A stretch of DNA of 64,000 bases from a bacterium (GTDB lineage Bacteria > UBP18 > UBA7526), in assembly GCA_030615855.1 (NCBI GenBank), contig JAUWYL010000003.1:2384-66383 (forward strand). The letters run 5' to 3'. The position numbers and the translations under genes were made by a program. Positions within the stretch are counted from its first letter, which is position 1. Each line of letters begins with the position of its first letter. The notes beneath the pieces are model-generated. The model did no database searches. It had not been told where the DNA came from and worked only from the letters and a program-made list of their open reading frames with translations. This document shows positions 33,246-63,376 of the stretch, one piece after another.

Positions 33246-33332
33246 CTCCTCTTAAAAAAGCAAAAAAGCCACTACATTCATGTGACATAGTGGCTCTTAC
33301 TTACTTTCCTACTTTTTTACTTTTATACTCTT

Positions 33333-35120: not shown

Positions 35121-35122
35121 AA

Positions 35123-37054: not shown

Positions 37055-37244
37055 TCTATCTCCTTGCCACCGCCGAATTACAAAACAAGTTGGATTAGTG
37101 TATTAGGTAGACTTTTAGGATATTAGTTGGATTAGTGTATTAGGTGGATTAGGTGAAAGTTAATTCAACTAGTCCAACTCATCCAACTAATTTACCAGTC
37201 TAACTATCCTTTTCTGCGTCTTTGCTTCTTCAGCGCTTCTGCGT

Positions 37245-38087
37245 TTAATCTTTTATCTCATAGGTCAAAGTGATGGGACGACCGCCCCTCTCTACTTCCA
37301 CACTGATGATCGGTCTATCCTTCACCTCTTTATACATCTGAATAGCCCTCTCAATACTGTCCAGCCTCTGGCCCTCAACCCCTTTGATGATATCTCCATC
37401 CCTCACGCCCAAGCTCTCAGCCAAGCTCCCCTTCTTGACATCATCTAACCTGAAGCCTCTTATCTGACCAGCCTCTAAGTAAGGTGCAACCTTCACCTGG
37501 GCAAGGAGCTGGTTGGGGTTACTGATCACTGAGGTGAATTTACTTCTGGAAAACGACCATCTATTGCTGGCCACCTTTTCCACCAAACGGGAAGTATCAG
37601 AAGTCATACCAGGAAGAAAGTTCTCACCATAAACTGCCAGGGAGACCAGACCGGCTGAGGTCTTCAAGACAACATGGTCTCTCTCAATCTTGACTATCTC
37701 ATTTTCCCCTACCAAGTCCCCTTTCTTGTAGACTTCCTCCTTCTTAGTATCAGGATCCTCAATGATGCATAGGGATTCCAGGCCCTCTACGACAATGGTC
37801 CCCTTCAGTTTTAGATTCGATACTATACCAGGTAGGGTTTCCAATAGCCCTTCTTCAAGTGAGACCCCTTCTTCCCCAGCAGCAAAGAGATTTCTTTCTA
37901 TAATAATAGAATAATGTTCATAGAGCCTGGGTTCCTCTTTCACTTCCTCTTTTCCTGGAGGAAGCGGAGGAGGCTTAGGAACCGCTACCTTTCCCACGCG
38001 GGCAAAGGAAAGGGAGATATCAATAATAATGGTAAGTGCGATAACGATGAGAACTACATTCAGGATCAGAAAATATTTCTTCAGCAT
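37245..38087 (-). CDS. gspC: GspC-like inner-membrane protein with C-terminal PDZ domain
   Basis: N-terminal TM helix. PDZ segment GFRLDDVKKGSLAESLGVRDGDIIKGVEGQRLDSIERAIQMY. Lies directly upstream of gspD. Confidence 0.6.
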   Translation of the reverse strand: MLKKYFLILNVVLIVIALTIIIDISLSFARVGKVAVPKPPPLPPGKEEVKEEPRLYEHYSIIIERNLFAAGEEGVSLEEGLLETLPGIVSNLKLKGTIVVEGLESLCIIEDPDTKKEEVYKKGDLVGENEIVKIERDHVVLKTSAGLVSLAVYGENFLPGMTSDTSRLVEKVASNRWSFSRSKFTSVISNPNQLLAQVKVAPYLEAGQIRGFRLDDVKKGSLAESLGVRDGDIIKGVEGQRLDSIERAIQMYKEVKDRPIISVEVERGGRPITLTYEIKD

Positions 38088-38695: not shown

Positions 38696-40591
38696 TTACC
38701 ACTTAATATCTAATTGAACAAAGATTGTCTTCTTTGGCTCATCTGGCCTGGCGGTATAGTCTTCATTAGTGTAGTTCTTGCAGGTATATCTCACCCGCAA
38801 CTTGATATCCTTGGTGAACTTCTCCGTAGCCTGGAGATAGTATTCATTATACCTGGTGTGCCTATCGGTATGGATATCGGAGTCATAATACTTCATCCTT
38901 CCCTCTAATGTGAGGCCCTTGGGCTTAGGTAAGTCGTAGCGCACCTTGAAGTAGGCGGTCTGGTCCTCCTGAAATTTATTGGTATACTTGCTGGCATCCT
39001 TCTGGTAGAAGGTATAAGAAGTCTCTAACTTAAGCCTCTTGATGGGGCTATATTTGCATTTGAAGTTATCGGTAATCTTCTCTCCCTCACTGATTGAGCG
39101 TCCCCGGCCGTTCCTATCGATGTCGTTATTCCTCCACTTGCGGTAGTAACTCAGGGTGAGTTTCTTTATTGGGGAGTAGTCTATCTTTCCCTTCCATTCA
39201 TCATCGGTAACTAAGGTGGAGTGCTGCTTCCACTGCTTATAGTATCCCTGAACCTTCCATCTCCTGCTGAACTTATAATCTCCTTTTATACGGTACCCCT
39301 TCTCATCGGTATCCCTTCCAAAGGACTTACTATGGGGATTTTCAAAGTCGGTATCATAATCATAGTAGATGGTCTCTAATTTGAACCTCTCCAGTTCCGT
39401 GAGGGCCTTCAGAAGATAGGCATCCCCTCCATCCTTTCTCCGACCAAACTCAGCAAATAGATTGGTCCTCTTTATCTTGGTGGCGAAGTCCAACCCGGCC
39501 ACAGAGAAGGTCCTCTTATCCGGGAACCTTGTCCAGTAACTACTCTTATATTCAAAGGGAAAGTCCCGATCTATCTTGCTTTGATACCAGGTGGCACCTA
39601 AGTGGGTTTTTTTATCCCAGCGGAAGGTGACATTGGCTCCCTCTATCTCTTCCCTATAGACATCGGGCAGGGTCTTCGATCCCAGGTTGGTGCTTACTGA
39701 GGGTAGGTCATAGTCATCCTGGGAATAGAAGACTGTAGTATCCAGCCATCTCTTCCCTAAGGGGATCTTCTTCCACCTGAAGGCTGCTCCAAAGAGGCGG
39801 TCAGTAGTGGTATCGTTATAGTAGATCCCATGGGCTTTACTTCGACCGGTCTCATTGAAGACCAGTCCCTGTCCAAAGCCCACCCCATAGTCACCAGCGA
39901 TGGCACTCCATTGGGGTTCACTCATATAGATATACTTCCTTAAGAGGCGCACCTCAGTATCCTCATTCTTGATGATAGCAGTCGATCCGGTAGCGGTATA
40001 ACCATCCAATATCTCATCCCTCTCTCCCAGGAAGCCAAGATGCACCCGATCGTAGGCATGGAGGCGAAGCCTCTCGTACATATAGGGCCTCTCCCCATCT
40101 TTCTCGGTATTCTTAAATTTAAAGCGCGACTCCCCCTTCCAACCCCTCTCTTCCTTCTTCCTCTTCTTCTCTACCATAGCAAAGGGCTCTATCTGGTCGT
40201 AGATATCCTTAATCCCAGAGATCTTCTTCATATCTTCCATACTTTTAAATAGACCATATCTTTCGCGGTAGGCAATAATCCTATCTGCTAAGGTGTAGGT
40301 TACTTCTGGAAGGTTATAAAGTTCCTTTCTACTGGCGGTATTGAGGTCCACCGGGTTATTGAATAGGTCCCTCAAGAGTTCGTAGCCCTCATGACTAATA
40401 TCTCCATCCACATATTCTTCTTCGTCATAGTCCCATTCTCCAGCCAGGTCACGCAGGTCGTCCTCACTTCCTACCCCGGATAGATCGACAGCATAGTCAT
40501 AGGCCCAGAGGGGATAGGCGCCAAGTAAGAGAAGGCTGAATACTATTAAAATAGTGAGCTTCTTCCTGCAGTCCATATTATACTTCCTCAA
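38696..40591 (-). CDS. outer-membrane beta-barrel protein with N-terminal ComEA-type helix-hairpin-helix domain
   Basis: Signal peptide. HhH unit VDLNTASRKELYNLPEVTYTLADRIIAYRERYGLFKSMEDMKKISGIKDIYDQIEPF. About 450 aa of alternating beta-strand pattern ending in the aromatic residues ...VQLDIKW. Confidence 0.5.
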   Translation of the reverse strand: MRKYNMDCRKKLTILIVFSLLLLGAYPLWAYDYAVDLSGVGSEDDLRDLAGEWDYDEEEYVDGDISHEGYELLRDLFNNPVDLNTASRKELYNLPEVTYTLADRIIAYRERYGLFKSMEDMKKISGIKDIYDQIEPFAMVEKKRKKEERGWKGESRFKFKNTEKDGERPYMYERLRLHAYDRVHLGFLGERDEILDGYTATGSTAIIKNEDTEVRLLRKYIYMSEPQWSAIAGDYGVGFGQGLVFNETGRSKAHGIYYNDTTTDRLFGAAFRWKKIPLGKRWLDTTVFYSQDDYDLPSVSTNLGSKTLPDVYREEIEGANVTFRWDKKTHLGATWYQSKIDRDFPFEYKSSYWTRFPDKRTFSVAGLDFATKIKRTNLFAEFGRRKDGGDAYLLKALTELERFKLETIYYDYDTDFENPHSKSFGRDTDEKGYRIKGDYKFSRRWKVQGYYKQWKQHSTLVTDDEWKGKIDYSPIKKLTLSYYRKWRNNDIDRNGRGRSISEGEKITDNFKCKYSPIKRLKLETSYTFYQKDASKYTNKFQEDQTAYFKVRYDLPKPKGLTLEGRMKYYDSDIHTDRHTRYNEYYLQATEKFTKDIKLRVRYTCKNYTNEDYTARPDEPKKTIFVQLDIKW

Positions 40592-40751: not shown

Positions 40752-41207
40752 TTATTTTTCTTCCATTCTCTGGAGGGCACATCCCCCACCCACTCGTCTT
40801 TCTCTCGCCTCAATGAAGGGCTCTATTTGCTCATATATCTCTAAGGTTATTCCAGGAATCTTCTTTATCTCTTCCTTACTTTTAAAAAGTCCATACTTCT
40901 TGCGATATTCTATAATCCTATCTGCTAAGTTGTAGCCTATCTCAGGAAGGTTATAGAGCTCATCCCTATCTGCAGTATTGAGATTCACCTTATTATCAAA
41001 TAGGTCTTTCAAGGTTTCATATTCCTCGTTAGTAATCTCCCCATCGACATACTCCTCTGCATCATAGTCCCACTCTCCGGCCAGGTCACGTAAGTCGTCC
41101 TCACTGGTAACATCAGAGAGGTCAACCCCATAGTCATAGCCCAGGATGAGAGGAGCAAGGAATAGGAGACTAAAAATCATCAAAATAGTAATCTTTCTGT
41201 GATCCAT
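40752..41207 (-). CDS. small secreted ComEA-type HhH protein (paralogue of the N-terminus of 38696..40591)
   Basis: 151 aa. VNLNTADRDELYNLPEIGYNLADRIIEYRKKYGLFKSKEEIKKIPGITLEIYEQIEPF. Nucleotide-level similarity to the 5' end of the neighbouring gene indicates a partial tandem duplication. Confidence 0.5.
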   Translation of the reverse strand: MDHRKITILMIFSLLFLAPLILGYDYGVDLSDVTSEDDLRDLAGEWDYDAEEYVDGEITNEEYETLKDLFDNKVNLNTADRDELYNLPEIGYNLADRIIEYRKKYGLFKSKEEIKKIPGITLEIYEQIEPFIEARERRVGGGCALQRMEEK

Positions 41208-41246: not shown

Positions 41247-42656
41247 TTACTCAATAGTAAAAGAACTTTTAAGAAAGCGGTAGGTCTCATCATCCATTCC
41301 CGGGACATCCTTCACTTCCCTCATACCCTTGAATGGACCATGGCTCTCTCTATAATCGATAATAGAACGAGCCATCCCCGGCCCAATGGCCGGCATGGCG
41401 GATAACTCCTGAAAGGTAACGGTATTGATATCCATCTTTTCTACAGTGATGAGATCTTTAAGTTTCTCATAAGTCTTAGATCCGATACGGGGGACATTCT
41501 GGATCTCAATGATACTTCTAAACGGACGATATTCGATGATGCGCCTCGCAGTCTTGGGTCCGATGCCTGGGAGGTTCTCCAACTCTTTCTGAGAAGCGAT
41601 GTTAATATTTACCTTTCGGGACACCCTCTTCCTCACCTCTGGCCTTTCTCCCGGAGGAACCTCACCAACAGTAATCAAGGGCCTCAGATTCTCCAAGGTC
41701 TTTGGCCCGATCCCCCTGGCCTTGGTCAATTCATCGATAGAGGCATAGGGTCGGGCATCTATGATGGCCCGGGCTTTCACCGGTCCAATCCCGGGAAGGG
41801 TCTGAATCTCTGAAGGAGAGGCGGTGTTGATATCAATCCTTGCTCTAACTGGAGGTGCTCTTTTTACAACCGGGACCTCCTTCTCGAGAGGGGCCTCGGG
41901 GGCTGGCTCTGCAACCTCACCAACAGTAACCAGGGGTCTCAACCTCTCCAGGGTCTTTGGTCCGATCCCTCTGACCCTGATCAGTCCATCAATGGTAGCA
42001 TAGGGACGGGCATCTATGATGGCCCGGGCTTTCACCGGACCGATCCCGGGAAGGGTCTGAATCTGAGAGGCGCTTGCCGTATTGATATTGACCAAATAAG
42101 AAGGCGCGGTATTCCTCTCTGGTCTGACTTCTTCCTTCTTCGCCAAACTCTCCCGAGCAAAATTTACCTCTTTCTGGGGTAATATCCGCATCTGAGGAAC
42201 CCTTACCACTTCTCCAGGATAGATGAGATCCGGGTTCTTGATCCTGTTATATAAAGCCAGATTAGGAAAGGCTGAAGCTATCCCCAGATACCTTTTAGCA
42301 ATCTTACTCAAGGTATCACCTTCCCTAACATAATGGGTTATTATTTCAATCCCCACTCCCGGAACCTGGAATGTTGCCTTTTCTAACTCAGGCTCCCTCT
42401 CCGGTCCAACAGTAACCAGGGGTCTTAACCTCTCCAGGGTCTTTGGTCCGATCCCTCTGACCCTGATCAGTTCATCAATGGTAGCATAGGGACGGGTATC
42501 TATGATGGCCTGGGCCTTTACCGGACCGATCCCGGGAAGGGTCTGAATCTGAGAGGCGCTTGCCGTATTGATATCTATTTTCTCCTGACCCAGCCCGGTC
42601 TGGGTCACAATAAGCAAAAGAAGGAAAATTAAAAGAACCAAGCCCTTTCTCATCAT
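41247..42656 (-). CDS. secreted protein with five tandem ComEA-type HhH DNA-binding domains and one LysM domain
   Basis: Five units of INTASxxQIQTLPGIGPVKAxAIIDxRPYATIDELIRVRGIGPKTLERLRPLVTVG. LysM: YVREGDTLSKIAKRYLGIASAFPNLALYNRIKNPDLIYPGEVVRVP. Units 1 and 2 are near-identical at the DNA level. Confidence 0.7.
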   Translation of the reverse strand: MMRKGLVLLIFLLLLIVTQTGLGQEKIDINTASASQIQTLPGIGPVKAQAIIDTRPYATIDELIRVRGIGPKTLERLRPLVTVGPEREPELEKATFQVPGVGIEIITHYVREGDTLSKIAKRYLGIASAFPNLALYNRIKNPDLIYPGEVVRVPQMRILPQKEVNFARESLAKKEEVRPERNTAPSYLVNINTASASQIQTLPGIGPVKARAIIDARPYATIDGLIRVRGIGPKTLERLRPLVTVGEVAEPAPEAPLEKEVPVVKRAPPVRARIDINTASPSEIQTLPGIGPVKARAIIDARPYASIDELTKARGIGPKTLENLRPLITVGEVPPGERPEVRKRVSRKVNINIASQKELENLPGIGPKTARRIIEYRPFRSIIEIQNVPRIGSKTYEKLKDLITVEKMDINTVTFQELSAMPAIGPGMARSIIDYRESHGPFKGMREVKDVPGMDDETYRFLKSSFTIE

Positions 42657-43085: not shown

Positions 43086-45020
43086 TCAAGGAGTCTCTTC
43101 GGGAGGGAGAATAAGAATCTCTGTCCCCGGTGGTTCCTCTTCTGGCTCCTCAACCTTCTCAGGCTCTATGGTAATTAGATCCTTCAGAACCTCATATCTC
43201 TTGGCCCCGATGCCCGGGACGCTCCGTAGATCTTCAATCCTTTCATAGGGACGGTGGGCGATGATGGCCAAGGCCTTTACTGGACCGATCCCGGGAAGGG
43301 TCTCCAATTGAGTCCGAGAAGCGGTATTGATATTGATTTTCTCTACGACCCTCTCTGGTTTGACTGGAACCTCGACCTCTTCCTCAGGGATGGACACCTC
43401 TTCCTCTATTTCTATAATCTGGATATCTGAGAGATCCTTCGGTCTTATCTCCAATTCATTAGCATAAGAACCGATCTGACCACTGACTTGAATACTCGTT
43501 CCTTGAACCAGGCTTTCCCTCTCTGGTATGCTCTCATATAGGTCCTTCCAGATAACGACATTTATGGAGCCTGTTCCATCGTCTATCTTTAATGTTCTAC
43601 CCTTCTCCTCTTTGAAGACCCTGACAGATATTATCTTCCCTTTAATGGTCACCCTTTGACCGATGGAGGCCTCGGTTATCTTACCGATAGGAACCAGTTC
43701 CGTCTCCAGAATCTGGATGTCTGAGGGTTTCTTCAGTTTTATCTCGAATTTATCCTTGTAAGATGCGACTCGACCACTGACCTGAATAGGCATTCCTTGA
43801 ACCAGGCTTTGTCTATAGAGTAGGCTCTCGTATAGTTCCTTCCAGATAAGGACATCTATGGAGCCTGTCCCATCGTTTAGCTCTAAAGTACGACCTTTCT
43901 CCTTTTTAAAGATCCTGACAGACATTATTTTTCCTTTAAGGGTTACCTTCTGACCGATGGAGGCCTCAGTTATGCTGCTGATGGGAACCACTTTTTCCTC
44001 AGGAACAGGTACCACTTCTGGCTTCTCAATCTCTTCTGGCTTCTCAACAGGGACTTCTTTAACCGGAACCTCTTCAACTGGGACTTCTTTAACAGGAACC
44101 TCTTCCACAGGAACTTCCTCAATCTCCACTATAGGAGGCTTTTCTTCCTTCCTTTTCTTTGGGCCCCCGAAACGAAAGGTCAGAGTGCCCAGATGGGTCT
44201 CATCGAGGTTATGGTGGGGAAGATAAGCATAATCAAAGGAGAGGAATCTATTCCTCAATCCCCATCCTACCATCCATCTGCCGGGATTATTAGCCACCCC
44301 GGAGCGAAGGAAGAGATACTTCAGCCAGTGGTATTCCAGGCCTAATCTGAACTCGTCATCCTCCTCTTTCTCCTGCTTCTCATAGTGATAATCTACTGCC
44401 AGGATTAAGTCGGGGTCTGGTCGATAGGCGATCCCTCCCGCATACCTCTGGGGGAGGTCGTCACCGATATGGGGGGTATTAACGTTACCTCCGAATAAGC
44501 CAAGGCTCAACTTCCCGTCCAGGAGTTTATATAAGAGTCCTAAGTCCCCTCCATAATCGAACTCCTTACCTACAGTCTCGATCTCGAGACGGAGGTACTT
44601 GGCATTTCCCCCAAGATAGATATCCTGTTTCTCAAAGGTGAACTTCCTTCCATAGGAGAAGATATAGGCATCTTCTCTTAACTTCCTGTGGCCATAATTA
44701 GTCGTGGCCAATCCAATGGTACCCAGCCTCCCCATAGGCAGAGCGAGATTTCCTAACTTATACTCTAAGTCCTTCTCCCCATAGAGCATGGTATAGCTTC
44801 CAGATAATTCTATCATTTTCAATTGTCCCAGACCCGCCGGATTGAAGTAGATGGCACTTGAATCATCTGCCACAGCAGTAAAAGCCCCTCCCATACCCCA
44901 GGCACGGGCAGAAGAGGGCCTCTCCTCAAATATAGCCCAAGCCGAGACAGTGAACAGTGAACAGTGAACAGTGAACAGTGATAAAAAAAATAAAATAAAA
45001 AATAATCGCTTAACCTTCAT
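43086..45020 (-). CDS. modular outer-membrane / surface protein: FadL-OmpP1-like N-domain, VPVEEVPVKE repeat linker, two OB-fold domains, C-terminal ComEA-type HhH
   Basis: N-terminal WGMGGAFTAVADDSSAIYFNPAGL. Linker (VPVEEVPVKE)n. Two ~90-aa OB units (ITEASIGQKVTLKGKIMSVRIFKKEKGRTLELNDGTGSIDVLIW...). C-terminal ININTASRTQLETLPGIGPVKALAIIAHRPYERIEDLRSVPGIGAKRYEVLKDL. Confidence 0.6.
   Translation of the reverse strand: MKVKRLFFILFFLSLFTVHCSLFTVSAWAIFEERPSSARAWGMGGAFTAVADDSSAIYFNPAGLGQLKMIELSGSYTMLYGEKDLEYKLGNLALPMGRLGTIGLATTNYGHRKLREDAYIFSYGRKFTFEKQDIYLGGNAKYLRLEIETVGKEFDYGGDLGLLYKLLDGKLSLGLFGGNVNTPHIGDDLPQRYAGGIAYRPDPDLILAVDYHYEKQEKEEDDEFRLGLEYHWLKYLFLRSGVANNPGRWMVGWGLRNRFLSFDYAYLPHHNLDETHLGTLTFRFGGPKKRKEEKPPIVEIEEVPVEEVPVKEVPVEEVPVKEVPVEKPEEIEKPEVVPVPEEKVVPISSITEASIGQKVTLKGKIMSVRIFKKEKGRTLELNDGTGSIDVLIWKELYESLLYRQSLVQGMPIQVSGRVASYKDKFEIKLKKPSDIQILETELVPIGKITEASIGQRVTIKGKIISVRVFKEEKGRTLKIDDGTGSINVVIWKDLYESIPERESLVQGTSIQVSGQIGSYANELEIRPKDLSDIQIIEIEEEVSIPEEEVEVPVKPERVVEKININTASRTQLETLPGIGPVKALAIIAHRPYERIEDLRSVPGIGAKRYEVLKDLITIEPEKVEEPEEEPPGTEILILPPEETP
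44944..44985. repeat. tandem cagtgaa(ca) repeat inside the signal-peptide coding region (encodes FTVHCSLFTV)
   Basis: gtgaacagtgaacagtgaacagtgaacagtg. The same k-mer family forms intergenic tandem repeats at 1533-1561 and 10423-10448. Confidence 0.7.
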
Positions 45021-45085: not shown

Positions 45086-45949
45086 TCAAAAGGCGAGGCC
45101 AAAGCCCAACCGATGGACTCCTTTCTCCGTTGCCCGGCGATACTGATAGGCATAATCTATCTTATAGTCTATTCCTCTCCTTGTTATGATCTTTATTCCC
45201 AATCCTCCTGTGGGATCATCGTGATAGCCTCCAGCCCGAAAGGCAAAGTACCTGCTTAGCCACCACTCCATACCAAAGGAATGCTCAAGTCCTACGAAGT
45301 TTTCTAAGTCATAGATATCGTAGGCGATGAGGATCTTCTTATGGGGTCGAAAGGCAATTCCTGGTCGCACATTCATCCTCCTCAATACCCCAAAGACTTT
45401 AGGCTCATTCACATCCTGAGCTAAGAGACCAGCGCTGAACCATCTTATCGGTCTATAGTGAAGGCCGAGGTCTAAGGAGAGATCATCTTCCGTCTCTTCA
45501 GAGACTCCGCTTGTCTTATGCCGGGCATCAATAAACTGGCCTCCCGCACCTATGGAGAACCCCCTGAAGATTTCCTTTCCCCAGGAAGCACCATACTGGT
45601 TTTCCGGCTCAGACCACCCTCTGCCTCTATAGCCGGCATTCAAGAAGTATAATCCCCAGGCACCATACCTCCTATCCGGCTCAGCATAGATTACCGTATC
45701 ATCATAATCTATCCTGTCCCTTTCTGCGTTATTCACAAGAGAACTAATCGAAAAGTCCCTCTTTTCTAATTGTGATAATCCCGCTGGGTTATAGTAGACA
45801 GCATTCGCATCATCTGCTACAGCAACCGCTGCCCCACCCATGCCCATCTGCCGGGTACCAACCTCAGCATAACTAACCGCAGTGAACAGTGAACAGTGAA
45901 CAGTGAACAGTGAAAGGACCAAGAGTAAAAATTTAAATATGTTCTTCAT
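45086..45949 (-). CDS. outer-membrane beta-barrel protein, FadL/OmpP1-like (paralogue of the N-domain of 43086..45020)
   Basis: 287 aa. MGMGGAAVAVADDANAVYYNPAGL. Ends in aromatic-rich RLGFGLAF. Same repeat-encoded signal peptide LSLFTVHCSLFT. Confidence 0.55.
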   Translation of the reverse strand: MKNIFKFLLLVLSLFTVHCSLFTAVSYAEVGTRQMGMGGAAVAVADDANAVYYNPAGLSQLEKRDFSISSLVNNAERDRIDYDDTVIYAEPDRRYGAWGLYFLNAGYRGRGWSEPENQYGASWGKEIFRGFSIGAGGQFIDARHKTSGVSEETEDDLSLDLGLHYRPIRWFSAGLLAQDVNEPKVFGVLRRMNVRPGIAFRPHKKILIAYDIYDLENFVGLEHSFGMEWWLSRYFAFRAGGYHDDPTGGLGIKIITRRGIDYKIDYAYQYRRATEKGVHRLGFGLAF

Positions 45950-46021: not shown

Positions 46022-49000
46022 TTATTTTCGTATTAACTTATTCGCTCCCCAAACCAATGGCTTCAATCCTGCTCTAACTACTGCCTTGAGTGGTTCTTTA
46101 TCTCGGATGAAGTCCGCAATCGGTGGCGAAATTTTACAGTAAGTAAGAACAAATGCCCGACCTAAGGGATTAGTGAGCAGATGCTGGTCTCGGAACTGCC
46201 GCAAAGCCATTATTTCAGGAGGACAGTTTAAAAAGTTGGTTAGTTGGTTAGTTTTATCCGTGCTAATCCGTGATTTTAATCCGTGCCTATCCGTGCAACT
46301 GCTGTAAGCAGCAGTAGCAATAAAGCATCCTCCACTCCCTCCACCACTCAGAGACTTGCCCACTGTGACCGTAGTCGTTGCCTCAGTGCTCGAGTTTCCA
46401 TCTTCAGCAATGGCCTTGATATAAATGGTGTAGTAACCTATAGGAACAGAGTCGCCAGAACTGTTCTTCCCATCCCATTTTGTAGAGAAACTATCTGCAA
46501 TATAATACTTATCTTCCCCTAAGGTTTTTACCACCCTTCCCCTTCCATCGAGGGCCTGAATGGTGACCTCAGACTCCTTATTAAGAGTGAAGGAGATCTT
46601 GGTATGTCTCCGATTGAGGTCGCTTCCATCCGATAGGAAGGGATCTTCAGAGACTCCTAAACCCCTGATTCCCACTCCAGAAGGCATATCCGCATTATTT
46701 ACCTTCCCTCTGGTAGGAGAGGAACAGACGCTCCAGTCACTATTTGCATTGGTATCACTTGAATCAGCGTCACGGGCGATGGAGTCATTAGCATCGACTG
46801 TAGTGCTATTAAAACAGTCAGATTCTGCCAGAGAAGCCCCAGCAATCTTCCATTGTTCAGGATCAGCATCTACTAATGCTTGGACATCTGCTTCCTCACC
46901 AGAACCCCACGTCCCACTTTGATCTGCCCAGCAAACAGCATCCTCAATATTCCCCAATCCATCCTTGAAGATTACCTGTTCATCTGTAGAGGTCAACCCA
47001 GTATCATGGGCCCAGATATTGATGATTCCATCCGAACCAGCAGTGAGTTCATCCATCCAGTAACTCATCCCATTAGTAAAGATCTCAATATTTCCCCTTC
47101 CTGTAGGAGCCCCGGTCCGTGAACCAGTTCCTGTGCAGTAGTAGGGAATACTTTTAGCCGACAGACGATCCAAACATTCAGTAGTCGGATGGTTATAGGG
47201 GTTGGAGCCGGTAGAGATGACGGCCTTATCCGGATAGACATAGGTGAGGAAGTTACTTGAGGTGGCATATCTAGCGCCATGATGGCCTACTTTTAAGATA
47301 TCGCTCGTTAATCCTATCCCATACTTACTGATCAGGTTCTCCTCCACCTCGAATCGGGGATCATTATCATGGCAGGCAGAGGATTCCGCATCACCAGTGA
47401 GCATAAAGGAGACATTCCCGTAGGTAAGGTAAATAACAATGGAACTATTATTCTTATAATCGGTTCCTTCCTCTTCAGTTGCTCCTGGCCAAGGACTGGT
47501 AGCATGGGCATTGAGCACCTTGGCAGTAATGTTATAGTCTTCATCCCAGGTATAGGTCTGGCCAACGGTGGGAACGATACCCGGAATATCATTGACATCT
47601 GAGATGGTTGGGTAACCCAACTCATTCTTTACCGCGGTAACAAAGGCATCGGTATAATAACTCTCTGGCTGGCCAGAGAGCCAGATGGCCTCTACTGTCT
47701 TATTATTTAAAACATCTGTCAGGTCACCATAATGGTCGCTATCCGCATGGGTAGCGACCATACGATGGACAGTAGTAGAGACACCCACTTTATCAAGATA
47801 GGAATCAACGATTTCCTTATTTGGGTTTCCTCCATCGATTAAGATATTTTCTCCTCCCGGAGTCTGAACAAGAATGGAGTCCCCTTGTCCTACATCAATG
47901 AAGGTGACGGTCATGCAGCCTGAGGCTGGCTGGAGGACTAAATATTCCCCGGTCTTTATTGTTGTTCCCTTGGCGATGGTCTTTATTGTTCCATCATCTT
48001 CAAAGTAGCATTCCCCGATATCTACTCCGCTTCCATCGCTGGTTCCATCAGCCTCACAATATAACTCTACCCAGTCCTTGCTGCCTGAAGCATTAAACGA
48101 TACCTCATTTATCTTAATGCTTACATCCAATTCTAAGGAAGAGGGGTTCTTCTTTCCCTTGGTAGGGGTAGTAATAAGATTCCAATCGCTCTCCTTATGG
48201 GTATCCGTTGCTCCAGAAGCATTATCTCTTCCTAAAGACTTTCCCTTTGCCCCACTCGTCCAGTTGGCAGACTGGCCTTCCTGAGTCTCATTACTGTAGG
48301 TATCCTCATCCCCGGCATCGCCAATCCATTGACGGGGACTGAGACTATCATCCGCTATCCTGTTGAAGGCCGTACGCTGGGTGCCTGCCCAGGTGCCATC
48401 CCTCTTGGCCAATGATACAGCATCGATGATGTTTCCCGAAGGATCCTCAAGGATAATGACATTATCCGTTCCGGTAAGACCAGAATCCGTGGAATAGAAG
48501 TCACGATAGCCATTCCCATTGGTATCGCTATCCACCTCATCCGCAGTAGGGTCCTCCGGGTCATCCCTGAGACGAAGGACGATATACTCATCATCAGACA
48601 TAGTATAATCTGGAAAGGTCTTGATATAGGCGCTTCTTTCCAAGACTCTCCAGGAACCGATATTCTGGGTTGTTCCCGAGACATTATGGAACTCAATCCA
48701 CTCTGGGGTATCCTTGGTAGCAATCTCATTAATCAATATACTGCCTGGGTCTCCCTCATCTGGAGCAGTAGTATTTGTTGCTTTCGGTGACCCTCTTTCT
48801 GTGGCCCCGGCATCCCAGTTAGTAGTTCCTTCTTCATTGGCAGTATACCAGTTCTTGGCCTGCGTACCATCCCCGGGGGTGCTGCGACGCTCCATAGAAT
48901 ATTTCTTATCATTGTCACCTGCTAAAGGTGTTGAACTATCACCAGCGGTATCATAAAGGATATCGCCATCCGTGTAGAGTTTTATCTGAAGAGTGCTATT

Positions 49001-50290
49001 GGATAATACTACATCAGTATCTATTACATTTGGAGTAACACTATCTTCTATTCTGGAGTTAGCTGCATCAAAGTTAGAAATGAGGAAGTAATCATCACCA
49101 GCCGGATCACCCGTGGCCTTTATGGTTCCAGAAAGGGTGACTTGCATAGGAGCTTCAGCTCCAGCAGAAAATTTAGTGAGATACCAGTTGGTCAAATCAA
49201 TGTCTGAACTGCTGGTATTCCTCAGTTCAATCCATTCATCGGAACTGCTAAGCGTACTCCCTGTCCACATCAATTCGTTGATCACTACCGGCGCTCCTCC
49301 GTCATAATAGAGAGCAGTATCTGTGCGGTCAATAGAGGGGGCTGGTTCGGCATCGGCATAGGTAGCGGTAATGGTAGAGCCATCGGCCACCTTAATCACA
49401 TTATTGGCATCATTACTAGCAGTTGTAGAAACTCCTAACTCTGGCTCTGGAGATTGAATGTTAAATATTCCGGTATCGTTTCCCGTTTCGGTTAGGGTAA
49501 TACTTATCGTTACTGGGTCAGAGGTAGTGGAGATTATGCTGACCGTAAACGACTGCTTACTTCCCGAATCGGTATTGCGATCATTATCAGTGACCGTAAT
49601 ATCGGAAGTTTGAGAAGTGCTGCTAAAGATTCCTCTATCAATATCTATGCTCCCCACATAGTTGCCGCTTCCATTTGCTGCTCCCGGAGTTCCCAATTCT
49701 GTAGCCCCGGAATCCCAGTTCAGGGAGGTCGTAGCAGTATACCAGTTCTCTGATACCGTTCCATCACCCGGTGTAGTATTACGAGACATAGAGTATTTAT
49801 TGGCATTATCCCCAGCAAATGGGGTTCCACTAGCATCATCAGCGGTATCGATGATCGTAGTGGTTTCACCTGCATAGGGGCCATCATAGAGTTTTATCTG
49901 TAGAGCAGTATTGGCTAAAGAGACATCAGTATCTACCACATCTGGTATGACGTTCAACTTTGAACTACCACTGGTCTCGGCATAATTGGAGATGAGGAAG
50001 TATCCATTGGCTGGGATGGTGCCAGAGGAGATGGTGAGCATCAACGTCTCTGCGCCACTACTATACTTAGTAATATCCCAATTACTCAGATTGATGGGTG
50101 AACTGGTCATATTCCTCAGTTCGATCCATTCATCATAAGTACTGGCATTACTCCCCATCCACATCAACTCATTGATCACCACATCCCCGGGATCTGCTCC
50201 CCAGGCTCGCCCGCTCCCACAGAGAGCTATACTAATAATAAGGAATAGCATTAATGTTAAGTTCTTAGAAAATATTTTTCTTATCTTCAT
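46022..50290 (-). CDS. giant surface protein: three lamin-tail domains + ComEC-like metallo-beta-lactamase nuclease domain + Ig/FlgD-like domain + Gly-linker + CFIATAAY C-terminal sorting domain
   Basis: Lamin-tail-domain motifs VVINELMWMGSNASTYDEWIELRN, VVINELMWTGSTLSSSDEWIELRN, ILINEIATKDTPEWIEFHN. MBL segment MTVTFIDVGQGDSILVQTPGGENILIDGG ... VATHADSDHYGDL (ComEC C-terminal-domain-like). C-terminus GGGSGGCFIATAAYSS[repeat insert]NFLNCPPEIMALRQFRDQHLL...SPPIADFIRDKEPLK. Confidence 0.7.
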   Translation of the reverse strand: MKIRKIFSKNLTLMLFLIISIALCGSGRAWGADPGDVVINELMWMGSNASTYDEWIELRNMTSSPINLSNWDITKYSSGAETLMLTISSGTIPANGYFLISNYAETSGSSKLNVIPDVVDTDVSLANTALQIKLYDGPYAGETTTIIDTADDASGTPFAGDNANKYSMSRNTTPGDGTVSENWYTATTSLNWDSGATELGTPGAANGSGNYVGSIDIDRGIFSSTSQTSDITVTDNDRNTDSGSKQSFTVSIISTTSDPVTISITLTETGNDTGIFNIQSPEPELGVSTTASNDANNVIKVADGSTITATYADAEPAPSIDRTDTALYYDGGAPVVINELMWTGSTLSSSDEWIELRNTSSSDIDLTNWYLTKFSAGAEAPMQVTLSGTIKATGDPAGDDYFLISNFDAANSRIEDSVTPNVIDTDVVLSNSTLQIKLYTDGDILYDTAGDSSTPLAGDNDKKYSMERRSTPGDGTQAKNWYTANEEGTTNWDAGATERGSPKATNTTAPDEGDPGSILINEIATKDTPEWIEFHNVSGTTQNIGSWRVLERSAYIKTFPDYTMSDDEYIVLRLRDDPEDPTADEVDSDTNGNGYRDFYSTDSGLTGTDNVIILEDPSGNIIDAVSLAKRDGTWAGTQRTAFNRIADDSLSPRQWIGDAGDEDTYSNETQEGQSANWTSGAKGKSLGRDNASGATDTHKESDWNLITTPTKGKKNPSSLELDVSIKINEVSFNASGSKDWVELYCEADGTSDGSGVDIGECYFEDDGTIKTIAKGTTIKTGEYLVLQPASGCMTVTFIDVGQGDSILVQTPGGENILIDGGNPNKEIVDSYLDKVGVSTTVHRMVATHADSDHYGDLTDVLNNKTVEAIWLSGQPESYYTDAFVTAVKNELGYPTISDVNDIPGIVPTVGQTYTWDEDYNITAKVLNAHATSPWPGATEEEGTDYKNNSSIVIYLTYGNVSFMLTGDAESSACHDNDPRFEVEENLISKYGIGLTSDILKVGHHGARYATSSNFLTYVYPDKAVISTGSNPYNHPTTECLDRLSAKSIPYYCTGTGSRTGAPTGRGNIEIFTNGMSYWMDELTAGSDGIINIWAHDTGLTSTDEQVIFKDGLGNIEDAVCWADQSGTWGSGEEADVQALVDADPEQWKIAGASLAESDCFNSTTVDANDSIARDADSSDTNANSDWSVCSSPTRGKVNNADMPSGVGIRGLGVSEDPFLSDGSDLNRRHTKISFTLNKESEVTIQALDGRGRVVKTLGEDKYYIADSFSTKWDGKNSSGDSVPIGYYTIYIKAIAEDGNSSTEATTTVTVGKSLSGGGSGGCFIATAAYSSCTDRHGLKSRISTDKTNQLTNFLNCPPEIMALRQFRDQHLLTNPLGRAFVLTYCKISPPIADFIRDKEPLKAVVRAGLKPLVWGANKLIRK
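46252..46292. repeat. atccgtg / cacggat-family tandem repeat inserted in-frame within the C-terminal sorting domain of the 1422-aa protein
   Basis: tatccgtgctaatccgtgattttaatccgtgcctatccgtg encodes CTDRHGLKSRISTDK between AAYSS and NFLNCPPE. The paralogous site of the 1094-aa protein (51261-51304) carries the same family. Confidence 0.7.
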
Positions 50291-50874: not shown

Positions 50875-51083
50875 TCCTTCTTCATTTTTAACCCCAGCTT
50901 CGCACAGACTGGAAGGTGGGAAGCAAAATTCAAGGAATCTATTAGTTCTGAGTCTAATAGAAATTCCATGATCTCGGCACTCTCTTTAATGGTAAGTTTC
51001 CTCAGGGTTTCCCTTCTCTCTTTTTCGCTCTCTCTTCTATACTTTTCCGGATTCTTAATCATCGCTTCTTCCTTCTTTAACAA
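50871..51083 (-). CDS. possible small partner protein of the nucleotidyltransferase (70 aa)
   Basis: ATGA overlap with the NTase start. Charged, helical. Overlaps the last 28 bp of the upstream giant gene. Purely positional evidence. Confidence 0.3.
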   Translation of the reverse strand: MLKKEEAMIKNPEKYRRESEKERRETLRKLTIKESAEIMEFLLDSELIDSLNFASHLPVCAKLGLKMKKE

Positions 51084-54000
51084 TTCTCTTTGCTCCCCAA
51101 ACGATCGGTTTCAGATAGAATCTCACCATTGCTTTCAGTGGTTCTTTATCTGAAATAAAGCGAGCAACCGGTGGACTAAAGCGACAGTAGAACCTCACAA
51201 ATGCTTTTCCCAGGGAATTAGTCAAGAGATGCTCATCCCGAAATCTCTGCAAAACAATAATCTGTGATCTGTGTGAATCCGTAATAAATCTGTGTGAATC
51301 CGTGCCGCTGCTATAAGCAGCGGTAGCGATGAAGCATCCCCACTTCTCTGAGGTGCTCTTCGCCTCTTCCTTGGCAGCTGCCGGGGTGGTAATGGTAACC
51401 ACGGGAGTGCTCACCTCGGTGTCCGGACTTGATGAATATACCCCCCACAACTGTATGTAGTAGGTCGTTCCTCCTGAGAGACCAGTAATGGTGGTGGAGG
51501 TCGTCGCCCTGGTAGCCAGATCAACATCATTACTATCATCCCAGTAACTGGTTGCCTTGTTTTCCACTTCAGTTCGATTGGTCCCATAATAGATGCGGTA
51601 GCGGAGAAAGTCCTTATCTGAAGGAGTGAAGGGCGTCCAGGTCAACTTGCTACTTGAGGATTTCGATTCGCTCTCCTGGACATCGGCCAAACCCACAGAA
51701 ACAGAAGCAGTACCAGAAGGAGAAGTCGTCTCATTACCAGCGTTATCCATTGCCCATATTTTAGCATAGTAGATGTTAGGTGAGGTTAATCCTGTAACGA
51801 TAGTTGAAGAGGTATCTATATCTGTCTCTTCCTTTTTAGTGGCTCCTTCTGGCGAACCCGTATTGTCCTTATCCTGCACCTTTGTCTGATCCTTCCCATA
51901 CCAGATTTCATAGTGGCTGAAGTAGCTCTCTGTGCAGGCCGTCCAGGAGAAAGTAATACTCGTTGAAGTAGCAGAACTTGCCTTGAAATCCGCCAGACCA
52001 CTGGGAACCACATTATCTATGCCAAAAGGAGTACCAGGAGAAGAAGCCGTATCCCCCATATAACCATAACTACCATCATCCGCGCCATCATTGGCCTTCA
52101 TCCTGAAGTAAACCGTGTCATCTTCAGTAGTGGGAAGATCAGTTGCCGTAGCCCAGGTGATGGTCTTCTCGCCTGGAGTGCCGATAGATTCCTCGGAGGC
52201 TGGGTCAGTAGAAGCGGTATGCCAATCTATTTCATCTCCGGTGGTAGAATACTCTGGATACCCAGTGCAGGAGTGACTATCGGCATCTATCAAGGTATAG
52301 GAAATCTCCCAGTCTCCTCTTTTCCAACTGGGAACCGGTGACTCAGTAATGTTTATTAAAGGAAGATTATTGTCGGTTACCTCAATACTAATACTGATAG
52401 CCGAGGTATAACCTGCACTTGAGTCGGCATCAATCTGTATGGTTTCCCCGGTATCATAATATATGCCGCTATAACTGGCCACCCCACTCACAACGTCTTC
52501 TGTAAGGGCGTCATTAGGTAATAAGGCACCAGCACCGGCGTGAAGTGCTAAGATAACGGTACCTATGGCAGCGGGGGTCACATTACCATAGGTATCCTTT
52601 ACGCTCACCTTTGGCTGGGTAGCAAAGGGGAAACCGACGATGGCCGCATCCGATGGTGGAGTGGTAAAGTCTAATTTATTGGGATTATCAGGATCGACAG
52701 CAATATTCGTTGAGGTCCCATTAATTGCTCCATCATCGGCCTTAATCCAGGGGGTCTCTCCTGCGTTATAGAGAGTGAAACCAGATACCGTTGCCACACC
52801 ATTCGCGAAGGTCTGGTTCCCATCAGCCGGCTTGGTCGGGTCATTAACGCCTATGGCAGTAGCGTTCCAGGTCCAGGTAATGTAATGAGAACCAGTATAA
52901 TCGGTGACCGTAGTATCGTCTTGCCTCTGAGCAGTAACCGTAACTGAGAAAGTAGTTCCCGCAGTCTCAGTTCCAGAATGCTCGGTCACTACACTGAACT
53001 TGGTGGCCAACCAACCACCTGGGGGTTCTCCGTCAGAAAGCCAGGCAGCACCCAAAATCAATCTTTCGCCAGTAGCCGCATGTCGGGTTAGTCCTATAGC
53101 TATCCCGCCATTAGTAGTCCCTTCTCCAGCGCCGATCACATAGGAGTGGCTGATTTTTGTCCAGTCAGCACCATCTAAATCGGTGACACCCGACTCATCT
53201 ATACCACCAGCATGCTCAACCCCTACTTTTACCTTACCAGTTCCTTTTGCCCAGACCACCACATAATAGGTTTTGCCCACTTCTAAATCTTTACCTAACT
53301 GCTTTAGATAACGCTCATCAGAATATGGTTCATGGGCAAAAGAAGCCTCCCCGACTAAAACCTCATCTGGGTCAGTAGTTCTTTCACCTCTATTGCCCCA
53401 GGTGTATTCATCAGGATCACTACCGGTAATATCATCAAAAAATTCGTTGTATAGGTAATTCTCTCCTGCTTCAGGATGGGTCTGGAAGGTCTTGATATCC
53501 CCATATGCATGATCGCTGTCATATTCTACAACGCCTCTAAACTGATATTTGGTCTTTTTACTAAAACTCGGAGTAGCGGTATGTGAGCCAGCTACACCAT
53601 AAGGTGTGTAGGTTGTCTCATTATCGGTTATGCTGCCTGAACTTTCCCCCCATTGAAAGTAGACATCAACAGAAATCTCCTCCCCCATGGTAAAATCACA
53701 GTTAAGGGTAGCGGTAGTAGTCCCGATGCTTGAGGCATCCTGAGTGGTGACTGTAGGATAAGGGTAGGTGCCTGTAGTAGTCCAGATAATTTCGTCCGTA
53801 ATGACCTTTCCCTCTGACCTATTGCCGATACACTTAAATACCACATTATTGCTTTCACTTATGGCAGTCAATGCCCCAGCCACCAGGGACCCATAGGTAC
53901 CATCAGTGGCTGAGTAATAAGTCTGATCAACAGGAAGAGCACCGACATCGATTACCGTTGTCAGATCAGAGTAGGCACCCCCATCAATACTATATTGGAA

Positions 54001-54339
54001 CTTTACATCACCAGTAGTAGTACCAGCACGCATCACTTGGAAGTCAAAATTAGTAAGGGTTAATCCCCGGAAATCAAAGGTATCGGTTGTATAGGTAGAT
54101 TCTCCTGTACCGGCTTTGATCATTGCTGCATTGGTGCAGTAGCTAATGTTGTATGTTACGAAGTTACCATCAGCGGTCCAGCCCGACGGCCAATCGGGAG
54201 GATCTATACTTTCAAAATCCTCTGTATAGCCAGGCGAATGCGGTATAATGAGGGCCTGGGCACCCATACCCCAGCCCAGAAGCAACCCAATAGAGAGGGA
54301 TATCAATATTAAGTTCTGGGAAAGTCTTCTTTTCTTCAT
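51055..54339 (-). CDS. large surface protein with fibronectin-type-III-like domains and CFIATAAY C-terminal sorting domain
   Basis: Signal peptide. FN3-like units (e.g. ...YYAKIWAMDNAGNETTSPSG). C-terminus WGCFIATAAYSSGTDSHRFITDSHRSQIIVLQRFRDEHLL...SPPVARFISDKEPLK. TTGACA-17-TATACT promoter upstream. Confidence 0.65.
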   Translation of the reverse strand: MKKRRLSQNLILISLSIGLLLGWGMGAQALIIPHSPGYTEDFESIDPPDWPSGWTADGNFVTYNISYCTNAAMIKAGTGESTYTTDTFDFRGLTLTNFDFQVMRAGTTTGDVKFQYSIDGGAYSDLTTVIDVGALPVDQTYYSATDGTYGSLVAGALTAISESNNVVFKCIGNRSEGKVITDEIIWTTTGTYPYPTVTTQDASSIGTTTATLNCDFTMGEEISVDVYFQWGESSGSITDNETTYTPYGVAGSHTATPSFSKKTKYQFRGVVEYDSDHAYGDIKTFQTHPEAGENYLYNEFFDDITGSDPDEYTWGNRGERTTDPDEVLVGEASFAHEPYSDERYLKQLGKDLEVGKTYYVVVWAKGTGKVKVGVEHAGGIDESGVTDLDGADWTKISHSYVIGAGEGTTNGGIAIGLTRHAATGERLILGAAWLSDGEPPGGWLATKFSVVTEHSGTETAGTTFSVTVTAQRQDDTTVTDYTGSHYITWTWNATAIGVNDPTKPADGNQTFANGVATVSGFTLYNAGETPWIKADDGAINGTSTNIAVDPDNPNKLDFTTPPSDAAIVGFPFATQPKVSVKDTYGNVTPAAIGTVILALHAGAGALLPNDALTEDVVSGVASYSGIYYDTGETIQIDADSSAGYTSAISISIEVTDNNLPLINITESPVPSWKRGDWEISYTLIDADSHSCTGYPEYSTTGDEIDWHTASTDPASEESIGTPGEKTITWATATDLPTTEDDTVYFRMKANDGADDGSYGYMGDTASSPGTPFGIDNVVPSGLADFKASSATSTSITFSWTACTESYFSHYEIWYGKDQTKVQDKDNTGSPEGATKKEETDIDTSSTIVTGLTSPNIYYAKIWAMDNAGNETTSPSGTASVSVGLADVQESESKSSSSKLTWTPFTPSDKDFLRYRIYYGTNRTEVENKATSYWDDSNDVDLATRATTSTTITGLSGGTTYYIQLWGVYSSSPDTEVSTPVVTITTPAAAKEEAKSTSEKWGCFIATAAYSSGTDSHRFITDSHRSQIIVLQRFRDEHLLTNSLGKAFVRFYCRFSPPVARFISDKEPLKAMVRFYLKPIVWGAKRIVKEGRSDD

Positions 54340-60942: not shown

Positions 60943-61094
60943 AATTCTCCCTCCTTTCTTAAACGCAGATTTCTTTATTCTGCTTACTGCGTGGGATTAA
61001 ATACACGGATAATCACGGATAAAACCTTAAACACGGATTATCACGGATTGGTTACGGATTCACACCCCATACCACTCCGACTCTAAGTTGGAGG

Positions 61095-61140
61095 CTACGG
61101 GGCCCTGCACCATATGGTTCAGGGCGGGGCAGGTAGATCA
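61095..61140. repeat. 45-nt conserved element (ctacggggcyctgcaccrtatggttcagggcggggcagg), second copy at 56545..56590
   Basis: Two near-identical copies in unrelated intergenic regions. Confidence 0.6.
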
Positions 61141-61443
61141 CAGATACTGGATACTTGATTCTAGATATTAGGAAACTCAGATAGACGCCAGACAATCTGG
61201 CTAGATTCTTCGTAATACTCAGAATGTAGGATCGGGAAACTGGGATATCAGGCACTTCGTTTCAATGCAAAGTGCAAAATTAACTGCTCACTCATTTTGC
61301 ATTGTTGTTTATTCCCAGTTTCCTCCGCCCCATCCGCCCCGGAGGGGCGAGACCTCGCCTCTGGCGGGCAATCCCCTAATCACCAATAACTGATAACTTT
61401 CTCCTGTAACCTGAGGCCGGCAGCCTGTAGCCTGAGGCCTGAA

Positions 61444-61956: not shown

Positions 61957-62196
61957 AGATTTTCACAGATTTTTTACAGCTGGGCACAGATCACAGATCT
62001 TGAAAGCCTGCTGAATTTTGAAAATTGTTTGTATCTTGTTTCTTGGTGTTTGTATCTTGTCAACGGTTTTCTATTCTCTCTTTTCTCTACTGATTTCCGT
62101 TCTCTGCCAACTGATTTCTGTTTTCCCTGCCCCGTAGGCTTGTCCTTCGGGGTAACAACCGATTTCTATTTTTATAGTCAATCACCGATCACCGTA

Positions 62197-63180: not shown

Positions 63181-63376
63181 CTCTCAACCCCTAATCATAG
63201 ATTATCAGAACATCAGAATGAGAATTCAGGAATCAGATTTCAGATTCAATCTGACCTTCTGATAACTGACCCTCTCCATCTGATACTCTGGTAATCTGAT
63301 ATTCTAATTATACGAGCAGCGCCCGTCTGGCCGCCGGACAGGCAACCGCAATCAATTAACGTAACTTGCAGCCTAT

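Follow-up and report, generated by a model that had tools for sequence, protein, structure and literature searches.

The 64-kb stretch of contig JAUWYL010000003.1 analyzed here (the window, 64,000 nucleotides of GenBank assembly GCA_030615855.1 from a bacterium of the GTDB lineage UBP18) contains at positions 46022-50290, on the minus strand, a single intact open reading frame (ORF) of 1422 codons, the product of which is denoted below the target. The original prediction, made from the sequence alone, had delimited this 1422-aa ORF correctly, without a strand. The domain architecture (Table 1) includes a signal peptide, four domains of the lamin-tail domain (LTD) type, a metallo-beta-lactamase (MBL) domain of the ComEC type, a FlgD-like immunoglobulin (Ig) domain and, after the glycine linker GGGSGG, a CFI-box-CTERM domain that begins with CFIATAAY at the extreme C-terminus; the order Ig-like domain, Gly linker and CFIATAAY domain had been proposed earlier and is borne out by profile matches. 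The signal peptide is the sole strongly hydrophobic 19-residue segment of the protein (Kyte-Doolittle 2.06). The target contains 14 Cys residues, is rich in Ser, Thr and Asp, and has a repetitive LTD/Ig architecture, with a net charge of -16 to -22 for each LTD and for the MBL domain, and of +9 for the CFI-box. A protein identical to the target is already public, in a 70-kb NCBI contig and in the Logan assembly of SRR14872660.

The Pfam LTD profile (PF00932) matches the target in four stretches (E 1.4e-37, 128.9 bits; cutoff 34.3). The INE...EWIE motifs from which three LTDs had been recognized are located at residues 38-60, 336-358 and 519-536, and all three domains are real, but the count is four, the fourth being split by the MBL domain. 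LTD1 and LTD2 are 54% identical (E 8e-61, internal BLAST), and LTD1 and LTD3 each pass the Pfam LTD threshold when taken alone. LTD3 is a long LTD-like domain that is covered in full (residues 517-719, 142 bits) by a purpose-built hidden Markov model (HMM) of 198 states, derived from 11 uninterrupted copies of this domain. The fourth LTD-like domain begins at residue 722 (KINEVSF...DWVELYC) and is matched by the same HMM as two complementary pieces, namely states 5-64 at residues 722-787 and states 81-196 at residues 1086-1202. Internal BLAST comparisons connect both pieces to LTD3, residues 724-787 resembling its N-terminal part and residues 1087-1198 its C-terminal half (32% identity, E 1.4e-17). 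In the Pfam LTD profile, the N-terminal half of LTD4 aligns with positions 7-71 at 21.5 bits, which is under the threshold, and the spliced domain (residues 717-786 joined to 1086-1216) has no Pfam match.

In four MBL-free homologues (P0127, P0125, P0009 and P0010), the long LTD-like domain is uninterrupted and is followed by the same Ig domain. The alignment of the target with P0127 is collinear, such that residues 725-786 correspond to P0127 residues 422-483 and residues 1086-1314 to P0127 residues 496-721, with 299 residues of the target in the place of a 12-residue loop of P0127. Because the HMM match is split and the alignment with P0127 is collinear, the ComEC-type MBL domain (residues 788-1085) sits, by this sequence evidence, within a loop of LTD4, the last of the four LTD-type domains.

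The Ig domain that follows LTD4 matches Pfam FlgD_ig at residues 1232-1294 with 26.5 bits (E 6e-6), slightly short of the cutoff of 27, and is kept in P0125, P0127 and P0009, where it forms the end of the protein. The possibility that this domain marks the target as cargo of a type IX secretion system (T9SS) was rejected, with no T9SS C-terminal domain (CTD) model matching at E<=0.1. The beta-rich domain between LTD1 and LTD2 has no Pfam match; a region of about 120 aa of this kind (LTETGNDTGIF ... ATYxD) is common to the target (49286-49645), to P0366 and to a C25-family peptidase encoded elsewhere in the window (24102-24404, minus strand), the latter resemblance amounting to 33% identity over 113 aa.

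The MBL domain is recognized by Pfam Lactamase_B (residues 799-1028, E 3e-10) and by the NCBIfam profile ComEC_Rec2, TIGR00361 (residues 784-1050, corresponding to model positions 432-656 of 663; E 3e-27), and its best sequence match in the PDB is the ComEC beta-lactamase-like domain 9ic4 (E 1e-18), with full-length ComEC structures also among the matches. The strings from which a ComEC-type MBL domain with a His/Asp ligand pattern had been read occupy residues 793-858 (~47.72-47.91 kb). The motifs of the domain comprise D799/D804, D819, H848-A-D850-S-D852-H853, N947/S950, D967, H1003-H1004 and H1034. Twelve family-conserved positions were checked by aligning the target, with MAFFT, to 19 dereplicated, diverse homologues (20 sequences in total), as the original prediction had proposed; the target keeps all twelve, and 11 of the 12 are invariant throughout, whereas position 850 is occupied by Asp in 17 sequences and by His in 3. 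H848, D852, H853 and N947 are present in 20/20 sequences, and the motif I aspartates (D804, D819), D967 of motif IV, H1003/H1004 of motif V and the terminal H1034 are likewise present and invariant among the homologues. The C-terminal domain of ComEC differs from other MBLs and from Pce in having Asp instead of one His in motif II and Asn instead of His in motif III (Silale et al., PMC8579336); the target carries both distinguishing states, D850 within the H-x-D-x-D-H motif II and N947 in motif III.

In the AlphaFold model of residues 717-1216, the MBL core (793-1082) has a predicted local distance difference test score (pLDDT) mostly of 85-97, and the segment is predicted to adopt the alpha-beta/beta-alpha fold of the MBL superfamily. 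A Foldseek search of the PDB with this model retrieves 9ic4 first (E 1.5e-21, TM-score 0.81 relative to the target), followed by Pce/CbpE (2bib, 1wra; E 1e-13) and then by RNase J; an identical order of structural neighbors was reported by the authors of 9IC4 (PMC12455585). The assignment of the MBL fold thus holds, the modelled segment being closest to the ComEC nuclease domain. Neither outcome that would have refuted the original prediction, loss of the metal-binding residues or a non-MBL fold, was observed, and its functional interpretation is reasonable. A reading of the domain as an anti-phage MBL (Avs1a, 6A-MBL) was rejected, the matches being weak, partial and far under the cutoffs.

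Judging from its sequence, the target itself is not a ComEC, because it lacks a channel domain, an OB fold and any hydrophobic segment past the signal peptide: the score with TIGR00361 is 95 bits against a cutoff of 190, there is no match to the Pfam Competence family, and the N-terminal OB fold (DUF4131) was found with neither Pfam nor NCBIfam. The earlier description of the domain as ComEC-derived goes too far, as descent may have run in either direction; the closest sequences are stand-alone secreted MBLs (38-40% identity, as against 28% for the ComEC C-terminal domain). With the ComEC CTDs of M. thermoacetica and M. glycerini (BLACT, 9IC4), the target has in common the signature DVGQGD, H-x-D-x-D-H, motif III Asn, motif IV Asp, HHG and the terminal His, as well as the location of action outside the cytoplasmic membrane, which for the target is predicted. 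It differs from them in not being membrane-integral and in the placement of the MBL domain, within an LTD rather than after the channel.

To look for the nested arrangement, 1.84 billion representatives were searched exhaustively by phmmer (E<=1e-3) with the 500-residue module as the query. The search matched 39,593 proteins, and only two of these, P0364 and P0366, span the whole query in one stretch (56% and 51% identity to the module, respectively); in addition, there is a fragment, P0124. Both P0364 and P0366 end in Ig-GGGSGG-CFIATAAY, and their N-terminal modules differ from those of the target. The contig L083 from JGI encodes a 66%-identical copy of the part from the MBL domain to the CFI-box, and the identity of the module across L083, P0364 and P0366 is 51-66%. 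The metal ligands and family-invariant residues are all intact in the target and in these three relatives. The nested module is rare, yet conserved across diverged relatives with the catalytic residues intact. A scan of GTDB retrieved no genome that encodes the target; the closest relatives by the LTDs come from Elusimicrobiota, KSB1 and unclassified metagenome-assembled genomes (MAGs), and the MBL domain is absent from all 80 loci. In L083 (JGI 3300016457, 6558 bp), the LTD::MBL gene at 750-3983 is broken: the plus strand encodes its N-terminal part and the minus strand its C-terminal part, which suggests that the gene either underwent an internal inversion or was assembled as a chimera.

A cell-surface-anchored, ComEC-derived nuclease had been described as an unusual way of processing extracellular DNA, a claim that is overstated and only partly justified. 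Among the homologues of the MBL region, ComEC-type MBL+LTD proteins from Firmicutes abound that have lipobox, S-layer homology (SLH) or CW_binding_2 anchors, such as the ~395-aa lipobox-MBL-LTD proteins of Lysinibacillus, the SLH-MBL-LTD proteins of Peribacillus and Bacillus, and CW_binding_2-MBL-LTD proteins, which are annotated as 'MBL fold metallo-hydrolase', 'competence protein' or 'S-layer homology domain-containing protein'. The haloarchaeal 'ComA', which combines an MBL of COG2333 with an LTD, was discussed in connection with extracellular DNA processing in 2014 and 2016 (PMC3929857, PMC5118699). The proteins of Firmicutes and of haloarchaea (Halobacterium NRC-1, Hlac_1867) share with the target the catalytic subfamily (37-40% identity), the LTD and a surface anchor; no biochemical characterization of them was found in the literature. 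In these proteins, however, the MBL domain is followed in tandem by one LTD, and the anchor is a lipobox, SLH, CWB2 or archaeal one, whereas the target has four LTDs with the MBL domain nested in the last, followed by the Ig domain and the CFI-box, in a two-membrane host and with a type II secretion system (T2SS) encoded nearby. Accordingly, proteins that unite a ComEC-type MBL with an LTD and a surface anchor are already known, and what is new is the nested topology, the array of four LTDs, the CFI-box C-terminus and the gene context.

A further comparison is with Xds of Vibrio cholerae and ExeM of Shewanella oneidensis, cell-associated LTD nucleases with a C-terminal sorting domain and roles in nutrition and biofilms (PMC6219818, PMC6085458). 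Like the target, these are exported proteins with an LTD, a Gly-rich linker and a C-terminal domain, and other GlyGly-CTERM proteins of V. cholerae are T2SS-linked. Unlike the target, Xds and ExeM possess an EEP catalytic domain, a single LTD and a GlyGly-CTERM (a transmembrane helix with a basic tail, cut by rhombosortase); neither EEP nor GlyGly-CTERM has a Pfam or NCBIfam match in the target. The similarity is limited to the LTD and the overall organization of the proteins. Large LTD-nuclease proteins have also been described in 'DNA-degradation loci' of sediment bacteria (PMC8289736).

Table 1. Domains of the target and associated genes of the window (all coordinates refer to the window).
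Feature	Coordinates	Strand	Basis and remarks
Signal peptide, aa 1-31	50198..50290	-	Likely cleavage between AWG and ADPG, by-eye reading of sequence
LTD1, aa 33-205	49676..50194	-	Pfam LTD, best stretch 33-136; segment alone E 3.4e-14
Unassigned beta-rich 'mid' domain, aa 216-335	49286..49645	-	Motif LTETGNDTGIF; no Pfam match
LTD2, aa 336-505	48776..49285	-	One of four Pfam LTD stretches
LTD3, long LTD-like, aa 515-719	48134..48748	-	Pfam LTD positions 5-106 at residues 515-626, E 3.9e-10
LTD4, N-terminal half, aa 722-787	47930..48127	-	Purpose-built HMM, 51.7 bits, E 4.7e-18
Predicted ComEC-type MBL nuclease domain, aa 788-1085, inside LTD4	47036..47929	-	Sequence, conserved residues, AlphaFold/Foldseek
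LTD4, C-terminal half, aa 1086-1202	46685..47035	-	Purpose-built HMM, 115.8 bits, E 1.1e-37
FlgD-like Ig domain, aa 1217-1315	46346..46642	-	Pfam FlgD_ig; PDB FlgD matches 3osv, 7eh9
GGGSGG linker and CFI-box-CTERM, aa 1316-1422	46025..46345	-	NF041770, 73.4 bits (cutoff 40), residues 1322-1413
OB+HhH gene	63377..63958	-	DNA-binding, upstream (59818..63958 in all)
CorA	62197..63180	-	Between upstream DNA-binding genes
2xHhH gene	61444..61956	-	DNA-binding, upstream
Zn-ribbon/transmembrane + 3 OB gene	59818..60942	-	DNA-binding, upstream
1094-aa fn3-rich exported protein ending in CFI-box-CTERM	51055..54339	-	Upstream partner; Pfam fn3; NF041770, 73.5 bits
287-aa PorV/FadL-like outer-membrane beta-barrel	45086..45949	-	72 nt downstream of target; PorV_fam 61.7 bits (cutoff 90)
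644-aa fusion: PorV-like barrel + 2 OB folds + ComEA-type HhH	43086..45020	-	Profile matches
469-aa exported protein, 5 ComEA-type HhH repeats + LysM	41247..42656	-	HHH_3 x5, LysM; comEA TIGR01259, 269 bits
151-aa ComEA-like protein	40752..41207	-	Profile matches
631-aa fusion: ComEA-type HhH + porin-like beta-barrel	38696..40591	-	HHH_3, weak Porin_4; ends ...DIKW
T2SS gene set: GspC, D, E, F, pseudopilins, K, L, M	20854..38087	-	Secretin = GspD equivalog, 460 bits (cutoff 351)
942-aa C25-family peptidase, poly-Gly + CFI-box-CTERM end	23532..26360	-	Peptidase_C25 E 4.6e-55; NF041770, 85 bits

The C-terminal domain of the target had been called a sorting domain. The profile match to the CFI-box stands, but the domain, of ~100 aa, basic, predicted to be all-helical and with no transmembrane segment, is not a classical sorting-signal tail, and the description of the target as cell-surface-anchored is an inference, the CFI-box having neither a transmembrane helix nor a known mechanism. 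Foldseek found no match to its fold in the PDB, and a literature search for 'CFI-box' and 'CFIATAAY' found nothing. The domain is widespread in environmental bacteria (2373 matches). Besides that of the target, two CFI-boxes are encoded in the window, both on the minus strand, in the fn3 protein (51073-51339) and in the C25 peptidase (23535-23711). A general link of the CFI-box with T2SS or C25 peptidases was considered and rejected: in three other genomes, the CFI-box genes are found among housekeeping genes (contigs of 39-74 kb), with no fixed gene partner across the three, and the association with T2SS or C25 peptidases was observed only at loci of the target's family (the window and L083).

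All genes between 20.8 and 64 kb of the window are on the minus strand. In the order of transcription, they encode the OB+HhH protein, CorA, the 2xHhH protein, the Zn-ribbon protein with three OB folds, TctA-like and YdjM-like membrane proteins, a DUF6036 protein and a ParB-like protein, the fn3-CFI protein, a second DUF6036 protein and the target, which are followed by the 287-aa barrel, the barrel with two OB folds and HhH, the 5xHhH+LysM protein, the ComEA-like protein, the HhH protein with a porin-like barrel and the T2SS. The target is separated from its two neighbors by 17 and 72 nt. Seven of these co-directional genes encode ComEA-type HhH and/or OB folds, which in two cases (the 644-aa and 631-aa proteins, barrels with fused DNA-binding modules) are joined to outer-membrane barrels and in one case to LysM. 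The T2SS, downstream of the target, is complete and includes GspJ among its specific parts; its secretin carries an AMIN domain, like PilQ. The pair consisting of an fn3-CFI gene and an LTD::MBL-CFI gene, in this order, recurs in L083 and L089, and in L083 the gene immediately after LTD::MBL is C25-like. The MBL-free homologue P0009 (L002) is, like the target, followed by a PorV-like barrel. Arguably, this set of DNA-binding, T2SS and CFI-box genes is more interesting than the target protein alone.

The 287-aa barrel also shows weak Toluene_X and UPF0164 matches and ends in ...GFGLAF. Its signal peptide and that of the 644-aa barrel are nearly identical (LSLFTVHCSLFT), which suggests a recent duplication. 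Two DUF6036 nucleotidyltransferase-like genes (50308-50874 and 55828-56313) and the ParB-like gene (54488-55273), all on the minus strand, are scattered among the genes for exoproteins; in L083, too, the LTD::MBL gene is preceded by a DUF6036 gene, and another is found near the LTD protein P0010 (L084, an Elusimicrobia MAG).

Based on these observations, the best reading, with a probability of roughly 0.6, is that the target is an exported Mn-type DNase which would process captured extracellular DNA at the cell envelope. Mn-dependent endonuclease and 5'-3' exonuclease activities have been shown for the isolated nuclease domain of ComEC, the affinity of which for DNA is undetectably weak; its activity is raised by fusion to an OB fold or to a ComEA DNA-binding domain (PMC12455585). 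By analogy, the ComEC-type MBL domain of the target would be a two-metal (probably Mn2+) enzyme with endonuclease and 5'-3' exonuclease activities. Exported across the inner membrane by the Sec signal peptide, the target would most likely pass to the outside via the adjoining T2SS, as its proximity suggests, and would be retained at the surface by the CFI-box, as proximity and the common C-terminal domain of the exoproteins suggest. Because the isolated ComEC nuclease domain binds DNA very poorly and depends on a DNA-binding partner, and because the LTDs are acidic, the co-encoded ComEA-type HhH and OB-fold proteins are envisaged as presenting DNA to the target, which would cut this captured DNA at the envelope; the strongly acidic character of the LTDs makes DNA binding by these domains doubtful, and it is more parsimonious to regard the LTD array as a stalk or a ligand-binding scaffold. 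Most likely, the target would serve in DNA foraging, as a means to obtain phosphorus, nitrogen and carbon, or would remodel the DNA of the matrix.

Several observations weigh against this reading. The LTDs and the MBL domain are all acidic, and the target itself is therefore unlikely to hold DNA. A1006 occupies the position of Ser728 of M. glycerini BLACT_Mg, in which the S728A substitution lowers activity (PMC12455585); Ala is found at this position also in 9 of the 19 homologues. AlphaFold, which had been put forward as a check of the LTD beta-sandwiches, gave a confident MBL core but a pLDDT <50 for both halves of LTD4. The sole pointer to export of the target by the T2SS is proximity; the small CFI-box proteins of the three other genomes are encoded far from any T2SS or C25 peptidase, and the CFI-box lacks a transmembrane helix, a solved relative and a literature of its own. 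Neither a nucleotidase nor a nucleoside or phosphate transporter is encoded nearby. Finally, the 5xHhH protein with its LysM anchor suggests that DNA is present in the periplasm, and this would suit uptake no less than surface foraging.

In line with the latter observation, an unlikely alternative is that the target belongs to a DNA uptake system similar to that of natural competence, in which the secretin and pseudopilus would admit double-stranded DNA to the periplasm and anchored ComEA-like proteins would ratchet it in. The ComEC type of the MBL domain, the many ComEA-type proteins, including the presumably periplasmic LysM-anchored 5xHhH protein, and the PilQ-like AMIN domain of the secretin are all compatible with such a system, as is the existence of ComEC variants without an MBL domain (PMC12455585). 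However, the specific components of the apparatus (the GspD equivalog above the cutoff, GspC, J, K, L and M) identify it as a T2SS, neither a retraction ATPase of the PilT type nor a ComEC channel, DprA or ComF is encoded in the 64-kb window, and the target has its C-terminal domain in common with the fn3 protein and the protease, which speaks for a set of exoproteins of a general kind and against a machinery for competence. Foraging is favored over uptake both by the components specific to T2SS and by cargo that resembles exoproteins.

It is distinctly improbable that the MBL domain is a phosphodiesterase acting on a substrate other than DNA, either a surface polymer, as for the pneumococcal Pce/CbpE, or RNA, and that the DNA-binding neighbors are coincidental. 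Pce is the second-best structural match, the C-terminal domain of ComEC has a general phosphodiesterase activity on bis-p-nitrophenyl phosphate (PMC8579336), and the acidic LTDs suggest a ligand other than DNA; the two positions that set ComEC apart from Pce (motif II Asp and motif III Asn), however, are in the ComEC state in the target, ComEC is favored by 8 orders of magnitude in the sequence and structure scores, and coincidence is hard to accept for so dense a cluster of DNA-binding genes. Least of all is the target likely to be a non-catalytic adhesin or matrix scaffold that keeps the MBL domain merely as a binding module, a very improbable option for which the repetitive LTD/Ig architecture, the composition rich in Ser, Thr and Asp, and the DNA-guide role proposed for the inactive pneumococcal ComEC C-terminal domain (PMC8579336) could be invoked, but under which the intact metal ligands and invariant residues of the target, P0364, P0366 and L083 would be unexpected without selection for catalysis.

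The region from 20.8 to 64 kb could conceivably encode an undescribed envelope-spanning apparatus for the capture and processing of extracellular DNA, a speculative extension that is unlikely to hold as a whole. Its parts would be outer-membrane barrels fused to ComEA and OB modules, the peptidoglycan-anchored 5xHhH protein, a T2SS-type machine and the CFI-box exoproteins (the nuclease, the fn3 protein and the C25 peptidase), with the C25 protease and a PorV-like barrel attaching the CFI-box cargo in the manner of PorU and PorV of the T9SS. The likeness consists in the presence of a C25 peptidase and PorV-like barrels by cargo with a common C-terminal domain, and in the fact that the C25 peptidase bears a CFI-box itself, as PorU bears a CTD; it is an analogy only. 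The match of the C25 peptidase to PorU is weak (49 bits; cutoff 420), and the PorV_fam matches of the barrels (62 and 58 bits) are under the family cutoff of 90. Unlike the T9SS, the cargo domain is helical rather than an Ig-like CTD, there are no T9SS core genes, and the adjoining system is a T2SS. Should this proposal be correct, the CFI-box would act as the sorting signal in a new, T2SS-coupled pathway. The C25 peptidase gene, together with a separate gene for a C25-propeptide-like protein, has the odd location between gspK and gspL (23532-27033, minus strand).

In sediments, extracellular DNA is a major source of phosphorus and nitrogen; it is also the substrate on which horizontal gene transfer acts. 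Nuclease activity of the ComEC domain was not demonstrated until 2021-2025, and then solely in the context of the uptake channel, whereas in the target and its three relatives the ComEC-type catalytic domain is re-used as a predicted free, exported enzyme within a lamin-tail scaffold, and the gene of the target has many ComEA/OB DNA binders encoded around it. If the activity and localization are as envisaged, the target would be a tractable example of a ComEC-type nuclease with separate DNA-binding partners, and would provide a first function for the widespread MBL+LTD surface proteins and a first handle on the CFI-box-CTERM domain.

With regard to the expression and surroundings of these genes, a scan of the window for promoters and terminators gave totals no better than those for shuffled sequence, and only two good, sensibly intergenic -35/-10 matches. 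One is a perfect TTGACA-17-TATAAT with an extended TG upstream of gspC (38433-38461, minus strand), and the other an 11/12 match upstream of the fn3 gene (54371-54399, minus strand); these promoter-like sites may be the starts of two transcription units. Horizontal acquisition of the region as an island was rejected given the uniform GC content of 0.44-0.49. A HEPN/nucleotidyltransferase pair, similar to toxin-antitoxin modules, is inserted between gspE and gspF (31646-32678, minus strand). The remainder of the window is an ordinary chromosome of a two-membrane bacterium, with genes for MlaE, DnaB, H+-PPase, Prs and GlmU.

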